Below, piece by piece: positions 4,245 to 30,118 of a stretch of 64,000 nt of DNA; the stretch's first letter is position 1; the number at the start of each line of letters is the position of its first letter. The translations under genes were made by a program, and so were the position numbers. The notes below the pieces were generated by a model, which saw only the letters and a program-made list of their open reading frames with translations, did no database searches and had not been told where the DNA came from. Origin of the DNA: an uncultured Alphaproteobacteria bacterium (lineage in GTDB: Bacteria > Pseudomonadota > Alphaproteobacteria > UBA11222); assembly GCA_947085465.1 (NCBI GenBank), contig CAMTWQ010000025.1:7691-71690 (forward strand), given 5' to 3'.

Positions 4245-4936
4245 TGCTCACTCTCCTTAAACTTGGCATGTGACCGCCACAAATCTGGCCGCCGCGTGCG
4301 CGTAATATCTTCGGCTGCCTGTTGCCGCCATTTGCGAATGGCGGCGTGATTGCCGGACAGCAGCACCGGCGGTATCTCATGCCCCTCCCAAACTGCGGGG
4401 CGGGTATAGTGGGGATACTCCAGCAATCCCTTCTCGAAACTTTCTTCCATCAATGCGGTTGCATCACCAACCACTCCAGGCAACAACCGCACCACCGCAT
4501 CAAGCAAGGCGATTGCGGCAGGCTCACCCCCCGACAGCACAAAATCGCCGAGCGAGACCTGCTCCGCCGCGCGCGCCATTAGCACCCGCTCGTCAACCCC
4601 CTCAAACCGGCCACACACCACGACCACGCCAGAACCCGCCGCCAATTCGCGCACCCGATCTTGAGTAAGCGGCGCACCACGCGGCGTCAGATAAAGTAAT
4701 GGCCTCGGCCCAGCTTCGCGCGCCCGAACATCATCAATAGCGGCTGCCAAGACATCTGGCCGCATCACCATGCCAGGGCCGCCACCTGCGGGGGTGTCGT
4801 CCACGGAGCGGTGTTTATCGCCCGCAAATGCGCGAATGTCCACCGTTTCCAGGCGCCAAAGCCCTGCTTGCAGCGCTTTTCCCGCCAAACTATAGCCTAG
4901 CGGCCCTGGAAACATCTCCGTAAACAGGGTCAGCAC
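4241..4936 (-). CDS. trmD: tRNA (guanine37-N1)-methyltransferase
   Basis: 231 aa. [11 protein letters not shown]...[17 protein letters not shown] motifs. 4-nt overlap with rplS. Confidence 0.92.
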
Positions 4937-4974
4937 TGTGGCGGTCCAGGTATTTGAGGACTTTTGCAGCGTGG

Positions 4975-5526
4975 CTACTCCTCTGGCATTAGCCCAGGCG
5001 GCGGGTTTACCCGGACGAACCCCTTGGCGTCACCCTTTCCCATTCTCACTTCAATTACCACTTCAAGATTAAACGGCAACATTACGTTTTGCGGCTTTCG
5101 CCCGGGTTCCGGCGTCAGCGCCACTTCGATCAAATCCCCCGCACCAAAATTATACACCCCGACGATTTCCCCATCGGGGCGCGGCCCGTCTTGCCACTGA
5201 ACTGCCAAGCCAATTAAATCAGCGTGATAGAATTCCTCATCTGCTGCCAATTCCGGCAAGGCGGATCGTGGGACGTGTAGGCTTACGCCCTTTAGCGCCT
5301 CTGCTGCGTCCCGATCCGTAATCCCGGAAAGCTTTGCGGCCACGCCATCCTTCAGCACCTGTGTTACTTTCAGGCTAAAGCGGCGCGCCCCATCTCCGGT
5401 TTCGACCGGACCAAACGCCCCAACATCTTCGGGGCGATCCGTAAAGCACTTGACCCGCACCAGACCCTGCACCCCATGAGCGCCGAGTATCGCGCCAATA
5501 CAGACCCGGTCTTGCAGGGGTTGCAA
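4975..5526 (-). CDS. rimM: Ribosome maturation factor RimM
   Basis: 183 aa. Starts [16 protein letters not shown]. Canonical position between rpsP and trmD. Confidence 0.88.
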
Positions 5527-15239: not shown

Positions 15240-15352
15240 CTAGACCATTTCCTGATCGGATTGAATCAATCCGATCAGGAAATGGTCTAACGCATTCAAT
15301 CAGAGCCTTTCTTATCCGGTCAGGTTGGTTCAACCTGACCGGGAAAGGCTCT
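15240..15352 (+). repeat. Double-hairpin intergenic repeat, copy 1 (in the 5' leader of the riboswitch operon)
   Basis: Hairpin 1 is gaccatttcctgatcggattgaatcaatccgatcaggaaatggtc, a perfect 21-bp stem. Hairpin 2 is agagcctttcttatccggtcaggttggttcaacctgaccgggaaaggctct. Near-identical copies lie at 23772-23890 and 30000-30118. Confidence 0.9.
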
Positions 15353-23771: not shown

Positions 23772-23890
23772 CTAGACCATTTCCTGATCGGATTGAATCA
23801 ATCCGATCAGGATAAAAATGGTCTAGCACATTCAATCAGAGCCTTTCTTATCCGGTCAGGTTGCTTCAACCTGACCGGGAAAGGCTCTAG
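23772..23890 (+). repeat. Double-hairpin intergenic repeat, copy 2 (between sppA and glyQ)
   Basis: Same two-hairpin unit as 15240-15352, with a 4-nt bulge (ataa) in hairpin 1. Bounded by ctaga...tctag. Confidence 0.9.
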
Positions 23891-25648: not shown

Positions 25649-26680
25649 ATGGAGAGTTTCGTGGGAGTAGTTGTACCGCTGAATGGTGAAGAAGCGGGCG
25701 AAAATGGCGCTTTTGAGGCGTTACGCGATCTGGTGGCGGGCGAAATGGTCCGCACCAATGAATTTATCCTCACCCGTATGCATAGCCATGTGCGCATGAT
25801 TCCGGATCTGGCCGGGCATTTGATTGCGTCGGGCGGCAAACGGCTGCGCCCGATGATCACCCTGGCGGTCATGCGCATGTGCGGCTATTCGGGCGACGCG
25901 GATATCAAGCTTGCCGCCAGCGTTGAATTTCTGCACACCGCTACCCTGTTGCATGATGACGTGGTCGATGAAAGCGGCCTTAGGCGCGGTATAGCCACCG
26001 CCAACGTCATTTGGGGCAATCAGGCCAGCGTGCTGGTCGGCGACTTTCTGCTTAGCCGGTCGTTTCAGCTTATGGTTGAGATTGGCTCGCTGCCTATTCT
26101 TGGCGTGTTATCACACGCCGCCAGCACGATTGTGGAGGGCGAAGTGCTGCAAATGGAGCGCGCCAGCGATACGGCCACCACCGAAGACACGTATTTGCGG
26201 ATTATCACCGCCAAGACCGCCACCCTGTTTGCTGCTGCCTGTCAATCGGCGGCGATTATTTCGGGCCAATCGAAAGCCGAAGAAGAGGCGCTTGAATCCT
26301 ACGGCAAAAATCTCGGCATCGCCTTTCAACTGGTTGATGATGTGCTGGACTATTCCGCCAAGCAAGCGGCATTTGGCAAGTCCATTGGCGATGATTTCCG
26401 CGAGGGCAAGATCACCCTGCCAGTGGTGCTGTCATTCCGGCGCGGCAGTGACCCCGAGCGCGCATTTTGGCGCCGGGTGATGGAAGACAAACAACAAGAC
26501 AGCAGCGATATGGCGACGGCGGTGCAGCTAATGCAGCGGCATGGGGCGCTGGCGGACACGGTGGAGCGCGCCCGGCATTATGGCGACATGGCGCGTGATG
26601 CGCTGGCGATCTTTCCAGCATCGAGGGAAAAAACCTGCCTGTCCGGGATTGTCGATTTCTGTATCAACCGCGCCTATTGA
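25649..26680 (+). CDS. ispB: Polyprenyl diphosphate synthase (octaprenyl-diphosphate synthase-like)
   Basis: 343 aa. Two Asp-rich motifs, LLHDDVVDES and FQLVDDVLD. Confidence 0.85.
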   Translation: MESFVGVVVPLNGEEAGENGAFEALRDLVAGEMVRTNEFILTRMHSHVRMIPDLAGHLIASGGKRLRPMITLAVMRMCGYSGDADIKLAASVEFLHTATLLHDDVVDESGLRRGIATANVIWGNQASVLVGDFLLSRSFQLMVEIGSLPILGVLSHAASTIVEGEVLQMERASDTATTEDTYLRIITAKTATLFAAACQSAAIISGQSKAEEEALESYGKNLGIAFQLVDDVLDYSAKQAAFGKSIGDDFREGKITLPVVLSFRRGSDPERAFWRRVMEDKQQDSSDMATAVQLMQRHGALADTVERARHYGDMARDALAIFPASREKTCLSGIVDFCINRAY

Positions 26681-26774
26681 GGGTTTTGGCGGAGCAGGGT
26701 TGCGGACAGGGGCGCCAGCCGTTATAACCCGCCCCTTGCATCCTCCTTCGTTTTTTGCGCTATGGAGGACCAAT

Positions 26775-26851
26775 CGGAGTGTAGCTCAGCCTGGTAGAGC
26801 ACTGCCTTCGGGAGGCAGGGGCCGCAGGTTCAATTCCTGCCACTCCGACCA
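26775..26851 (+). tRNA. tRNA-Pro (anticodon CGG)
   Basis: CGGAGTGTAGCTCAGCCTGGTAGAGCACTGCCTTCGGGAGGCAGGGGCCGCAGGTTCAATTCCTGCCACTCCGACCA. The acceptor CGGAGTG pairs with CACTCCG. Anticodon loop is CUUCGGGAG. It has a GGTTCAATTCC T-arm and an encoded CCA. Confidence 0.9.
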
Positions 26852-26936
26852 CCCTTCGCCCTGCGGGCTTCGGGTGGCTTACGCCGCTTGGCGTAAGACG
26901 CACGGAACCGCACCTTGGGCGTAGGAGGGCTGGAGA
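26845..26936 (+). repeat. 92-bp direct repeat A (starts in the tRNA-Pro 3' acceptor end)
   Basis: ccgaccacccttcgccctgcgggcttcgggtggcttacgccgcttggcgtaagacgcacggaaccgcaccttgggcg... is repeated at 29181-29272 with only 3 mismatches, all near the 3' end. Confidence 0.92.
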
Positions 26937-26940
26937 AAAT

Positions 26941-27183
26941 ATGTTCTACGCTTACTTACTGAGAAGCATCAATTTTCCAGATCAGACGTATATCGGCTTC
27001 ACAGAAGATTTGAAAGCACGCATGAGAGCGCACAATGCCGGTGAATCAAAACACACCTCTAAATTTGCGCCGTGGCGAATTGTCTCTTACCACGCCTTTT
27101 CTGACAAAAGAAAGGCTCAGGAATTCGAGTATTACCTCAAGACCGGTTCTGGAAAGGCGTTTGCGAGCAAGCGATTTTGGTAG
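26941..27183 (+). CDS. GIY-YIG nuclease domain protein (80 aa)
   Basis: MFYAYLLRS...TYIGFTEDLKARMRAHN...FEYYLKTGSG has GIY-YIG-like YAY / YIG blocks plus the conserved R and E. Visibly AT-rich. Confidence 0.75.
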   Translation: MFYAYLLRSINFPDQTYIGFTEDLKARMRAHNAGESKHTSKFAPWRIVSYHAFSDKRKAQEFEYYLKTGSGKAFASKRFW

Positions 27184-27220
27184 TGAAAATTTCAAGGCGT
27201 TGTATTTATTATAATTCAAA

Positions 27221-27276
27221 GGTTCAAATCCTCTGAGGTCGACCACCCTACGCCTTCGGCTTCGGGTTACTGGCTT
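27221..27276 (+). repeat. tRNA 3'-end-like stub plus a degenerate copy of the att-like repeat
   Basis: ggttcaaatcctctgaggtcgacca looks like a T-loop, 3' acceptor strand and CCA. It is followed by ccctacgccttcggcttcgggttactggctt, which is related to the start of repeats A and B. Confidence 0.6.
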
Positions 27277-27284
27277 TAAGCTGA

Positions 27285-27767
27285 TTAATCGCACCACGTA
27301 CGGCGGTAACCGGGGCTATTTATCAGATACATATAATTCATGCTTTCTTTGTGGTCGGTTGGGCCGCTTTGTTTTATAAACGCGCGCTGTTCTTCTCCTG
27401 TATATTCCACGTCCGCAGGGTCGCCAATTTTGTAAAGGAAAGGAAAATAGCCTTCTCCGGAAATCCAGCGCCAGCCCGATACATACTGATCGTTCCACAC
27501 AACCCCATCAATATCCGGCTGCACCACAATATCGCCCTGACTGTTTTTAAGCGCTATCTTCTTTTCAAACCATTGCGTCGCGACAAGACGTGTACCATTG
27601 GGCAGTTGCACACAGCGATATTGGTCATAAAAAATACCGTACGGCACGTACAAGACGGCAAGCGTAAAAAAAGCCGTGCAGACGGTCATATACCATCGCA
27701 ACAGACGGCGAAGCGTATTTCGCGCCATGCGCAGCATCAGGCTCATTATACCAGCTTTCATTTTCAT
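27285..27767 (-). CDS. Membrane-anchored small protein (160 aa); candidate immunity partner of the MuF-domain protein
   Basis: N-terminal basic stretch and one TM helix (MTVCTAFFTLAVLYVPYGIFY), then about 110 soluble residues. It lies downstream and co-directional with 27943-28968. Its ATG directly abuts a remnant of a toxin-like 3' end. Confidence 0.55.
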   Translation of the reverse strand: MKMKAGIMSLMLRMARNTLRRLLRWYMTVCTAFFTLAVLYVPYGIFYDQYRCVQLPNGTRLVATQWFEKKIALKNSQGDIVVQPDIDGVVWNDQYVSGWRWISGEGYFPFLYKIGDPADVEYTGEEQRAFIKQSGPTDHKESMNYMYLINSPGYRRTWCD

Positions 27768-27836
27768 TCAGCCTGCCTCCACATGCAATTCTATCCGCCC
27801 CTGGCCAGCGCCATTCGGCAATTACACAAAATGACG

Positions 27837-27983
27837 TTAGAGCAAAAAATTAAGGTACAGCAGGTACAGAGCGGCAAGCGTACAAAAAGCCGTGCAAACG
27901 ATCCTGTACCATCGCCACATCCAGCGAAGCGCAGCCCGCAGCTTACCTGGAAACAGGCTTTTTATACCGGCTCTCATTTTCAT
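27837..27983 (-). pseudogene. Truncated 48-codon paralog of the N-terminus of the 160-aa protein
   Basis: Hand translation gives MKMRAGIKSLFPGKLRAALRWMWRWYRIVCTAFCTLAALYLLYLNFLL*, compared with MKMKAGIMSLMLRMARNTLRRLLRWYMTVCTAFFTLAVLYVPYG. It overlaps the last 41 nt of the MuF-domain gene in another frame. It is below the size cut-off of the ORF track. Confidence 0.5.
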
Positions 27984-28968
27984 TCAGTTTTGCCTCCGCA
28001 TGCAGTTCTGTCTGCCACTGACCGGTGATGGCGTACACCTTGCCGCCGCCATCGGTGATGAACCGCAAAATCTCTGAAACCGCTTCCACGCTGGGCGTGT
28101 CTGGCAAATATTGAGCGATAATTGCCGTAATGCGCCGCAGAATTTCTGGAACCGAATCCGCGTCGGATATCTCGCGCAAATATCGCCTTATATCTTCCGT
28201 GATGCGCCGCAAAATTTCTGCGGCTTTTGCAGGATCGGACGTGCCAAAAATTAATCTATCCCTGATACGTGCCGGGTCGGTATAGGCATCATCAAAGAAA
28301 TATGCGACCGCCCCGTCAATCTTCATCAAGCCATTTTTCTCTGAAACATATCCCTTAAATATACCAGACACAGTGGACCCACCGTGCGGGTATGCGACGG
28401 CTGTAAAATCGTAGCTTATGGAAAATTCGTAGGGAAAATAGCCATTGCCCACCGCTCGCGCCGCATGAATAACTTGTCTGTTGACCTCTTCAAATATTCC
28501 GGCGTCTCCCAGATGATAGGCATAGTGGTTGATGATATCCTGCAAATGGCCAATCCCGGACAACGTCACATCGCCCCCACCCTTAAACGCATGCTCTACG
28601 AAATCCTGTTTTTTCCATTTCGGGCTTGAATCATTCACTTCGCTGGTAAGCGTCTGATTGGCGAATTCGCTCTCGTTACGCACATAGGGTTCTGCTGTGC
28701 ACCGGCAACCATAATCCTCGCCGGGATGCCGCGTCGGCGGTGGGTTATCCCATGCGAACACTTTTCCATTATTTGCCGCATGCGAGGCGCGCACTTTGTT
28801 ATCGCCCCGCGTGCGCCAAATGTAGTGCGTAGTTGGATGTTCCTGCGCTGATGCCTTCTGTTCTTGTGCCGCCGCCTTCAACGACAGTTCAATGGGTACG
28901 CCTTTCCTGAGATACAGATTGAATGCCTTTTTATAGGCTGGGGTATGGATGATATCCGGGAGAGACAT
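27943..28968 (-). CDS. MuF / SPP1 gp7 head-morphogenesis-domain protein with an unrecognised C-terminal region (candidate polymorphic toxin)
   Basis: Residues about 48-95, YIWRTRGDNKVRASHAANNGKVFAWDNPPPTRHPGEDYGCRCTAEP, match the remembered Phage_Mu_F core (W.T..D.rVR.sH..l.G......p...PG....CRC). Residues 100-341 match no family I know and contain three EILR(R/F)IT repeats. Confidence 0.7.
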   Translation of the reverse strand: MSLPDIIHTPAYKKAFNLYLRKGVPIELSLKAAAQEQKASAQEHPTTHYIWRTRGDNKVRASHAANNGKVFAWDNPPPTRHPGEDYGCRCTAEPYVRNESEFANQTLTSEVNDSSPKWKKQDFVEHAFKGGGDVTLSGIGHLQDIINHYAYHLGDAGIFEEVNRQVIHAARAVGNGYFPYEFSISYDFTAVAYPHGGSTVSGIFKGYVSEKNGLMKIDGAVAYFFDDAYTDPARIRDRLIFGTSDPAKAAEILRRITEDIRRYLREISDADSVPEILRRITAIIAQYLPDTPSVEAVSEILRFITDGGGKVYAITGQWQTELHAEAKLNENESRYKKPVSR

Positions 28969-29180
28969 GGCAACTCCTAAAAGGGCGTAAAGCGAATTTG
29001 CTTTATATCAAAACCCAACCCTTTTGTAAAGAACAAAAAGAGAACATGATAAACCATAGGACTATTGGCATGGTCCTGCCCCCCCCATCCACCAGGCGGC
29101 TCTTTTTATCAACCCATTGTATGACATGGATAAAACGATTAGCCGTATATCGGGGCGGGTTCTGAACCCGTCCACCAGGG

Positions 29181-29272
29181 CCGACCACCCTTCGCCCTGC
29201 GGGCTTCGGGTGGCTTACGCCGCTTGGCGTAAGACGCACGGAACCGCACCTTGGGCGAAGGAGTGCTGGAGA
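29181..29272 (+). repeat. 92-bp direct repeat B (partner of 26845-26936)
   Basis: Preceded at 29155-29180 by a T-arm-like stub (gcgggttctgaacccgtccaccagg). Identical to repeat A over the first 77 nt. Confidence 0.92.
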
Positions 29273-29415
29273 GACCGCCTACGGGCTTCGGGTGGCGACG
29301 CCGTAGCGTGCGAAGCCAGAGCGTATCAGAGGCGAATAGTGCAATCCGCAAAATTTTAATAAGTGATAGGATAAACTCCCGCTGATTCGGTTCCGCTGAA
29401 CGAGTGGTGTTTGTG

Positions 29416-29931
29416 ATGCCGTTTCCACACATCGTAGAATCTGTTTATGACCCAGATTTGCTATTCCAGCGCCCGGAACTGATCATGTTCCTTGCCTACT
29501 GGAACGCCAAGCGGGGCGGGCGGCCATTCCCCTGCCGTGACGATTTCGTTCCGCGTGAACTGTTAAGCGTGCTGCCCTCGGTGCACATGTATGACGTTTT
29601 GGATCCGCCCGGCGGCGCGACTGACAAAGGCAAACAATTCCGAGTTCGTCTTATCGGCACCGCATTGAGTAACTTTTTTCCTAAAATGGACATGCGCGGC
29701 ATATACATCGTCGATTGGCCGCGCCCGATGTTTGAGCGGGTGCAACAGCATCTCCTCACTGTGTTGAAGCGCCGGTCGCCTGTGCGCGTCAGTAATCAGT
29801 CAACCAGCATTCCCGGACAAGAGTTTCAGGGATCTGAAGCCTGCTATGCGCCGCTGTCCAGCAATGGCGATGACATCGACATCATTATCGCTGTTTCAAT
29901 ATTATTATTAGAGCAGCCCGCGATTAAGTGA
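29416..29931 (+). CDS. Small PAS-like domain protein (PAS_5 / DUF1457-like)
   Basis: FLAYWNAKRGGRPFPCRDDFVPRELLSVLP...FRVRLIGTAL resembles the alphaproteobacterial PAS_5 family from memory. The start is taken at the ATG four codons into the track ORF. Confidence 0.55.
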   Translation: MPFPHIVESVYDPDLLFQRPELIMFLAYWNAKRGGRPFPCRDDFVPRELLSVLPSVHMYDVLDPPGGATDKGKQFRVRLIGTALSNFFPKMDMRGIYIVDWPRPMFERVQQHLLTVLKRRSPVRVSNQSTSIPGQEFQGSEACYAPLSSNGDDIDIIIAVSILLLEQPAIK

Positions 29932-29999: not shown

Positions 30000-30118
30000 C
30001 TAGACCATTTCCTGATCGGATTGAATCAATCCGATCAGGATAAAAATGGTCTAACACATTCACTTAGAGCCTTTCTTGTCCGGTCAGGTTGGTTCAACCT
30101 GACCGGGAAAGGCTCTAG
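30000..30118 (+). repeat. Double-hairpin intergenic repeat, copy 3 (between the PAS-like gene and the DUF4170 gene)
   Basis: Same unit as copies 1 and 2. Preceded by the palindrome ctagagcagattgctctag (29985-30003). Confidence 0.9.

Follow-up and report, generated by a model that had tools for sequence, protein, structure and literature searches.

The window, a 64,000-nt stretch of DNA from an uncultured alphaproteobacterium, carries a tandem duplication across the junction between a toxin-like gene and the gene for its downstream partner, a candidate immunity protein. On the minus strand, a 341-aa toxin-like ORF is followed by a 48-codon ORF, a remnant of a toxin tip (GQGRIELHVEAG and a stop), and a 160-aa ORF (Table 1). 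The scar probably arose through one unequal crossover between two modules of the same or a closely related kind, with no foreign cassette involved.

A repeat search aligned positions 27595 to 27771 with positions 27811 to 27987 at a spacing of 216 nt, with 73% identity and no gaps. Once one 1-nt indel was allowed, MAFFT and self-BLAST extended the match to 27815 and 28030, yielding 73.7% identity over 213 nt (E = 3.5e-33). The upstream copy (U) and the downstream copy (D) abut and form a true tandem duplication with a period of 216 nt. The initial annotation had described segments 27655 to 27815 and 27871 to 28030 as paralogs, each containing the end of a toxin frame and the MKM start of a gene for a transmembrane (TM) protein. 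We recovered the paralogy, both ends, and both starts, but the segments were drawn too short; both copies are longer (Table 1).

The repeat is not a product of chance. Without gaps, 126 of 173 positions matched, whereas 200 shuffles gave 63 matches on average and never more than 70. Together with the E value from self-alignment, this test excluded low complexity and random similarity. Furthermore, the homology is protein coding in two frames. An assembly artifact was also ruled out, since divergence between the copies is 26% and the architecture recurs in four independent assemblies from a sister lineage. We consider the probability that the duplication reflects chance, low-complexity sequence, or misassembly to be close to nil.

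Table 1. Features of the duplicated junction and its neighboring genes, in window coordinates
Feature	Position	Strand	Description
Intact toxin-like gene, 341 aa	27943-28968	minus	30-aa leader, mini-MuF core (residues 32-92), conserved C-terminal domain
Upstream copy U of the junction	27811-28030	minus	3' end of the apparently live toxin gene and a partner-gene 5' portion that is apparently dead; repeat search, MAFFT, self-BLAST, shuffles
GGAGG Shine-Dalgarno-like motif of the 48-codon ORF	27993-27997	minus	9 nt before ATG, inside toxin codons for AEA; putative function
48-codon partner-fragment ORF	27837-27983	minus	Basic tail and TM helix; at the canonical partner position
Partner homology past the stops	27811-27836	minus	Reaches ~codon 57 (...V-stop-LPNGA); ends at the duplication joint
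Toxin-tip remnant	27768-27815	minus	Reading frame GQGRIELHVEAG plus stop at 27806-27768, 13 codons
GGAGG in the toxin-tip remnant	27780-27776	minus	8 nt before the intact partner ATG
Downstream copy D of the junction	27595-27815	minus	Repeat search, MAFFT, self-BLAST
Intact partner gene, 160 aa, candidate immunity	27285-27767	minus	Basic N-tail, one TM helix, predicted periplasmic domain, LPNG motif

The toxin gene and the distal partner gene both appear to be live. When the window was compared with the sister locus, dN/dS was 0.14 for the toxin gene, which indicates purifying selection. For the partner gene, the ratio was 0.70 overall and 0.46 outside its fast-evolving first 57 codons. The toxin frame ends in GQWQTELHAEAKLNENESRYKKPVSR, with its stop at 27943 to 27945.

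The 48-codon ORF starts 40 nt ahead of that stop, as partner genes do in relatives. Its premature end, reported in the initial annotation, was reproduced. Homology to the partner continues through two TAA stops to ~codon 57 (...LPNGA), and identity was 53% over residues 1 to 59 with both TAA codons included. Relative to the 53-codon version in the sister lineage, the U fragment has a dN/dS of 0.93, and the stop positions differ. The differences between U and D were distributed across codon positions as 15/19/14. Because this ratio reflects neutral drift, the fragment behaves as a pseudogene, and the 48-codon ORF is probably a pseudogene fragment. Alternatively, the ORF could encode a working small membrane protein, or the junction could act as a regulator that tunes partner translation, in which case it would not be a fossil. 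Consistent with such a function, an ATG, a GGAGG motif, and a full TM helix are kept at the canonical coupled position, and the frame is open in both lineages. However, the near-neutral ratio, the shifting stop, the 48-nt deletion and mobile-element insertion in adjacent DNA, and the lack of such an ORF at other family loci make it very unlikely.

Downstream of this fragment lies the toxin-tip remnant. As first described, a 1-nt length difference (GGAGGC-AGGCTGA versus GGAGGCAAAACTGA) brings a TGA into frame here. Among 18 toxin tails, the remnant was nearest to those of the resident toxin subclade (82 to 85% over ~30 nt). Since GGAGG is kept 8 to 9 nt before the ATG in both copies, the remnant plausibly provides the displaced partner gene with its ribosome-binding site.

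The scar is shared with a sister lineage. Four assemblies (L034 to L037; two from ENA and two from Logan) are 88 to 90% identical to window positions 29213 to 27229 and contain the same duplication. This rules out a strain-specific slip, the possibility that the initial annotation had set against its own interpretation. At the joint, the sister lineage has 48 extra nt, through which partner homology continues to ..QWFEK (~codon 69). The same nucleotides prolong the toxin-tip homology to K(I)AVCYCQWRIE... Because both homologies extend, the 48 nt are ancestral, and the original unit was therefore ~264 nt, with the window lineage losing 48 nt later. Between GGAGGC and the ATG of the partner, the sister lineage also carries an insert of 133 nt, for which the window represents the empty site. 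This insert belongs to a CTAG-bounded two-hairpin repeat family that is also found in the window at 15240 to 15352, 23772 to 23890, and 30000 to 30118.

Divergence provides a relative age for these events. Neutral divergence was ~0.10 to 0.14 between the lineages and ~0.3 to 0.4 between U and D, which places the duplication at approximately three times the age of the lineage split. Meanwhile, dS between window and sister was 0.37 for the toxin gene and 0.14 for the partner gene, and the identity profile was mosaic, ranging from 75 to 99% per 100 nt. The dS mismatch and the mosaic profile therefore indicate that recombination with other copies has occurred at the locus.

Related loci reveal the arrangement from which the window departs. 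In relatives, a homologous single-pass partner (...VQLPNG...) is read in a different frame and begins ~40 nt ahead of the stop of the toxin gene. We observed this overlap in G011, L042, and the U copies of the window and L034, as well as in G001 and G010, which have extended upstream ORFs. The full partner gene of the window has instead been pushed 216 nt downstream, behind the copy of the toxin tail. Partners are also exchanged at this position. Specifically, an unrelated 6-TM partner, of the type found on contig C83 of the same genome, follows toxins that are 89 to 91% (G003/L047) and 76% (L049) identical to the window toxin. Homology of these loci to the window breaks inside the overlap, just after CGGTATAAA and ~20 nt before the toxin stop, while the toxin tails still encode a relic "MKA..ING.KM" partner start. 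In locus L038, the toxin is followed by a 5-TM partner and then by an orphan-like single-pass partner without overlap. The initial annotation had suggested a comparison of related loci, which thus uncovered partner variation at exactly this junction. It had also called orphan toxin and immunity fragments typical of such systems, and these were present in relatives: L022 has a 101-aa piece of the toxin C-terminal domain, L049 has a 42-aa immunity fragment, and both L015 and L023 have acidic immunity ORFs. The window itself has no more than the junction scar.

Under the crossover model, an unequal (illegitimate) exchange would have fused partner codon ~69 to approximately codon -21 of the toxin, duplicating ~264 nt that span the toxin/partner overlap. 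Both genes would have stayed whole, in the order toxin, dead partner 5' fragment, dead toxin tip, and partner, with the toxin tip retaining a GGAGG motif and start context for the displaced partner. Decay followed: the window lineage lost 48 nt at the joint, giving the present 216-nt period, and in the sister lineage the 133-nt two-hairpin mobile element came to separate the putative ribosome-binding site from the ATG.

A second model, cassette displacement, holds that an incoming toxin gene with the 5' part of its partner was inserted upstream of a resident module. The resident toxin tip and intact partner would have been orphaned, and the present toxin would then rely on the older partner. 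This model draws on the swapping of partners by close relatives at exactly this junction, on the succession of partners in L038, and on the orphan fragments in L022 and L049. Phylogeny bears on both models. A maximum-likelihood partner tree, based on 175 nt of the partner 5' region, placed U, D, and the L038 allele in a trichotomy and does not separate in situ duplication from allele import. By path length, U and D were nearest to each other, and a U+D clade was not rejected (AU, P = 0.19). The lengths of the branches are those expected under a clock with neutral change in U and ~0.7 of that rate in D. U keeps RWMWRWY/RRIWRWY, which is common to other alleles, while D has a derived RRLLRWY. 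The retained motif fits either crossover or import, and U could come from a distinct allele.

Four observations count against a single crossover: the trichotomy, the motif that U shares with other alleles and not with D, the mosaic toxin gene with dS above that of the partner, and the 6-TM partner of other close toxin relatives. The first three also favor displacement. Against displacement, the remnant tip best matches the resident subclade, the U+D clade was not rejected, the branch lengths fit the clock, and the C-terminal domain of the toxin belongs to a single conserved type. In addition, the incoming partner would have been incomplete from the start, a risky condition for an active toxin. 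We consider displacement unlikely, although it is a serious rival to a crossover.

A comparison with known arrays points in the same direction. In the orphan arrays of CDI (cdiA-CT/cdiI) and Rhs systems, toxin 3' fragments and immunity genes lie behind the active toxin. As in the window, these downstream pieces are made by recombination at conserved sequence. However, the order in the window is reversed, with the proximal partner truncated and the distal partner intact, and what remains of the second toxin is a resident-type piece of only 13 to 21 codons. Furthermore, CDI and Rhs toxins recombine at pre-toxin motifs (such as VENN or PxxxxDPxGL), whereas the recombining segment here is the overlap of toxin tail and partner start. 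Such an array would hold, behind an intact toxin/immunity pair, a displaced toxin C-terminal domain preceded by a homology stretch and accompanied by an intact immunity gene. With its proximal partner truncated at 48 codons and its toxin remnant of 13 codons, the locus was rejected as a CDI/Rhs-type orphan array. We favor one crossover because the remnant tip is resident-like, the U+D clade was not rejected, the clock fits, and the layout is unlike that of CDI and Rhs arrays. The initial annotation had interpreted the scar as cassette turnover. This interpretation is supported in part. Turnover at this junction does occur in the family, but the scar itself shows no swapped C-terminal cassette; throughout the family, the C-terminal domain of the toxin is conserved, not variable, and the remnant tip is of the resident type.

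The toxin-like protein contains part of a phage head protein domain. Residues 32 to 92 match the C-terminal half of Pfam Phage_Mu_F (PF04233; 53.7 bits, cut-off 29.6), as well as TIGR01641, with the match covering only profile positions 50 to 111 of 112 (~60 aa). The protein also matched a PHROG head morphogenesis family (E = 9e-23), and phage records aligned to residues 46 to 104 only. Using a word-based search, we found 319 relatives, mostly 270 to 335 aa long, that aligned over near-full length. In the family alignment, the region beyond the MuF core is a conserved domain with no variable tip. Its near-invariant residues, in window numbering, are W118, H126, G140, Q165, R171, F182, Y186, F188, D227, D231, and W318.

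Structural comparison suggested a possible activity. Two AlphaFold (AF2) models were confident, with a pLDDT of 83 for the whole toxin and 87 for residues 100 to 341. Top Foldseek hits in the PDB belonged to the colicin M family (pectocin M1/M2, syringacin M, and colicin M), whose chains took the first 8 places with the full model and the first 4 with the model of the C-terminal domain. These matches were weak (E = 5e-3 to 5e-2, probability up to 0.96, TM-scores of 0.22 to 0.32). The toxin family motif F-x-D-x-F-T-D-P-x-D-x-R (window residues D227, Y229, D231, and R236) is similar to the ColM motif DxYDx5HR, but the spacing is off by one residue and the His is missing. In the toxin, this acidic motif (D-x-[YF]-T-D-x4-R) comes after a long beta-strand; unlike ColM proteins, the toxin lacks a receptor-binding or TonB-box N terminus. 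There was no match between the toxin and Pfam ColM (PF14859) at E <= 1, and a PF14859 search of the same genome missed the toxin loci. A PDB profile search with the toxin returned no ColM, with only chance GAPDH matches, and a fold search of BFVD (viral) with the toxin model returned nothing meaningful. ColM bacteriocins (Ghequire et al. 2018, PMC5821083) are thus the best fold matches of the toxin, yet without a match at the sequence level. A colicin M-like toxin acting in the periplasm is a tentative lead that is somewhat less likely than not, and lipid II, which colicin M-type bacteriocins degrade, is a possible target.

The partner is a candidate membrane-anchored periplasmic immunity protein. 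Cys52 and Cys159 are present in both the window and the sister lineage, and both are Tyr in five other alleles. This swap pattern suggests a disulfide bond and therefore a periplasmic location for the partner domain. Homologs of the partner sit directly after related toxins in G011, G010, G001, and L042; no further copy was found elsewhere in the genome, a 69%-complete metagenome-assembled genome. The 160-aa partner had no match in Pfam, NCBIfam, or PHROGs, and neither the 6-TM partner nor convergent "MNYWFW" membrane proteins matched Pfam or PHROGs. Across the family, the toxin is always trailed by a partner gene. Toxins and partners have co-diverged in one clade (toxins 66 to 69% and partners 48 to 51% identical), and close toxins are nonetheless paired with unrelated partners. 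ColM immunity proteins either are periplasmic with a single membrane pass or span the membrane with 3, 4, or 6 TM helices, and related toxins swap them (PMC5821083). The partners described here have the same range of topologies and the same exchange between close toxins.

The N-terminal part of the toxin is also combined with other domains in relatives. The leader and MuF core (residues 1 to 95, 77 to 86% identical) are joined to another C-terminal domain in L025/L026, which has a weak match to DUF4258 (E = 0.026). A full RNAse_A_bac domain was found in L033 (46.7 bits), and on contig C101 the 30-aa leader alone precedes the start of RNAse_A_bac. Polymorphic toxins (Zhang et al. 2012) reportedly share an N-terminal trafficking module, carry alternative C-terminal toxin domains, and are accompanied by a downstream immunity gene and orphan cassettes. 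The family has a shared N terminus with alternative C-terminal domains and, in relatives, orphan cassettes. This agrees with the initial description of a polymorphic-toxin-type locus.

A more specific parallel is offered by the MuF toxins of temperate phages, which consist of an N-terminal MuF/SPP1 gp7 domain and a C-terminal extension and are followed by a presumed immunity gene (Jamet et al. 2017, PMC5576092). The window locus has the same N-terminal MuF domain, C-terminal extension, and small downstream gene, and in both groups the N terminus is joined to different toxin domains. However, the window protein contains only the C-terminal half of MuF (~60 aa) in a total of 341 aa, and the gene of its membrane-protein partner begins within the last 40 nt of the toxin gene in the canonical arrangement. 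The setting differs as well: MuF toxins are located by the portal gene in the prophage head module, whereas the window copy shares a tRNA-Pro islet with a GIY-YIG gene, and paralogs follow gene g15 of a gene transfer agent (GTA) instead of a portal gene.

This islet is low in GC (46 to 52%, compared to 57 to 63% in the flanks), adjoins tRNA-Pro(cgg), and has 92-nt direct repeats and tRNA-3'-like stubs at its borders. Within its limits (26852 to 29272), there were no phage genes; the GIY-YIG gene that it carries encodes 80 aa. An Rfam scan of 26500 to 29600 returned only tRNA-Pro and a sub-threshold chance match to a snoRNA. In a promoter and terminator scan, sites were no more frequent than in shuffled sequence, and none fell between toxin and partner. 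In the sister lineage, the module is at tRNA-Pro(tgg), between ~400-nt direct repeats with GIY-YIG genes. Locus C83 of the window's own genome is likewise at tRNA-Pro(tgg), with a different toxin and partner. Judging from these neighborhoods, the scarred module occupies two different tRNA-Pro islets in two lineages. Meanwhile, primary copies of the toxin family directly follow the GTA tail gene g15 (GTA_TIM, Phage-tail_3, Rcc01698_C) in 7 of the 13 genomes from the bacterial family, including contig C101 of the same genome.

These observations suggest a broader scenario. The overlap (~60 to 90 conserved nt) may be the joint at which the family swaps partners, and the scar may be a misfire of that process; the toxins may be GTA cargo, and the window copy a satellite. 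As a joint proposal, this is a long shot. The mini-MuF module may serve in head packaging, placing either a colicin M-like enzyme that acts in the periplasm or an RNase inside GTA heads for delivery to recipient cells, and membrane-anchored partners may protect kin. The window copy, in turn, may have spread to tRNA-Pro islets together with the GIY-YIG gene. A literature search found no paper linking GTAs with MuF toxins. We raise delivery by GTAs as speculation because of the adjacency to g15 and the head-internal role of MuF proteins (PMC5576092).

By itself, the scar is a routine by-product of recombination, and its value is that of a dated marker. It marks the overlap of toxin end and partner start as the site where the family breaks and rejoins. 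It also indicates that, once the scar had formed, the 2-kb module relocated between two tRNA-Pro sites, and that a partner gene can leave its coupled position and still survive. The toxin family is less ordinary, combining a mini-MuF N terminus and possibly a colicin M-like domain with interchangeable membrane partners. If GTAs do carry such toxins, this would bear on why GTAs are maintained.

We compared the window copy of the toxin-like gene (27943-28968, minus strand) with its counterpart in the sister-lineage locus L034 (2637-3638). Identity along the gene was mosaic, ranging from 75 to 99% per 100 nt, and synonymous divergence (dS) was 0.37, well over the 0.14 of the adjoining partner gene. 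Because the toxin is both mosaic and far more divergent at synonymous sites than its partner, the sequences suggest gene conversion among the three or more toxin paralogues of the source genome. One of these paralogues lies directly 3' of the tail/host-specificity gene g15 (domains GTA_TIM, Phage-tail_3, and Rcc01698_C) of the gene transfer agent (GTA), with the toxin start overlapping the g15 stop. This order was found in 7 of the 13 genomes of the bacterial family.

The window toxin carries tandem "EILRRIT..I..YL" repeats. In the toxin-family alignment, the repeats were also present in the toxins of L034, related genome G003, and L049, and in altered form in the P0004 toxin; a single copy is the usual state among family members. 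The 30-aa MuF-toxin leader, "TPAY..AF..YLR.G.PIE", also begins an open reading frame (ORF) that enters a CdiA-CT RNase A-like domain without the MuF core. A complete RNAse_A_bac protein is encoded in related genome G001, close to its GTA end.

Features of the toxin loci, with coordinates in the window or in relatives' loci (L numbers)
Feature	Location	Strand	Remark
Three tandem 72-nt (24-aa) repeats	window 28052-28220	-	within toxin gene, immediately ahead of conserved toxin tail
g15-adjoining toxin paralogue	source genome G000:C101 (L008 1161-6028)		also L032, L033, L015, L016, L017, L022
Leader + RNase A-like ORF	L008 6709-7122 (source-genome contig C101)		interrupted by contig end
Leader + RNase A-like ORF	L033 7389-8015
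Two-hairpin element, sister-locus insertion	L034 3858-3990
Two-hairpin element, window copies	15240-15352, 23772-23890, 30000-30118
Islet features, window	26845-26936 / 29181-29272; 27220-27254
Islet features, relatives and source genome	L034 2001-2395 / 4880-5275; L009 100-176
"MNYWFWLLI.." proteins	L032 5540-5995, 6357-6839, 7054-7566
"MNYWFWLLI.." proteins	L008 6065-6622; L030 5270-5758		plus many other loci

Toxin/partner modules are housed in small, integrase-free islets at tRNA-Pro genes; the tRNA anticodon is cgg for the window islet and tgg for those of L034 and source-genome contig C83. Direct repeats and tRNA-3'-like stubs border these islets, every one of which contains a small GIY-YIG gene. 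Separately, a CTAG-bounded two-hairpin mobile element sits in the sister locus between the putative ribosome-binding site of the partner and its ATG. Differences between copies of this element are paired changes, in both stems.

In the partner, the candidate immunity protein (window 27285-27767), cysteines at residues 52 and 159 occur together in the window and L034; both positions are tyrosine in loci L038 and L042 and genomes G001, G010, and G011. Since the two cysteines are kept or replaced together, they fit a predicted lineage-specific periplasmic disulfide. Downstream (3') of many toxin loci, in convergent orientation, are multi-transmembrane proteins beginning "MNYWFWLLI..", which are triplicated in G011. 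These proteins, which had no match in Pfam or PHROGs family searches, may represent an additional type of immunity protein.
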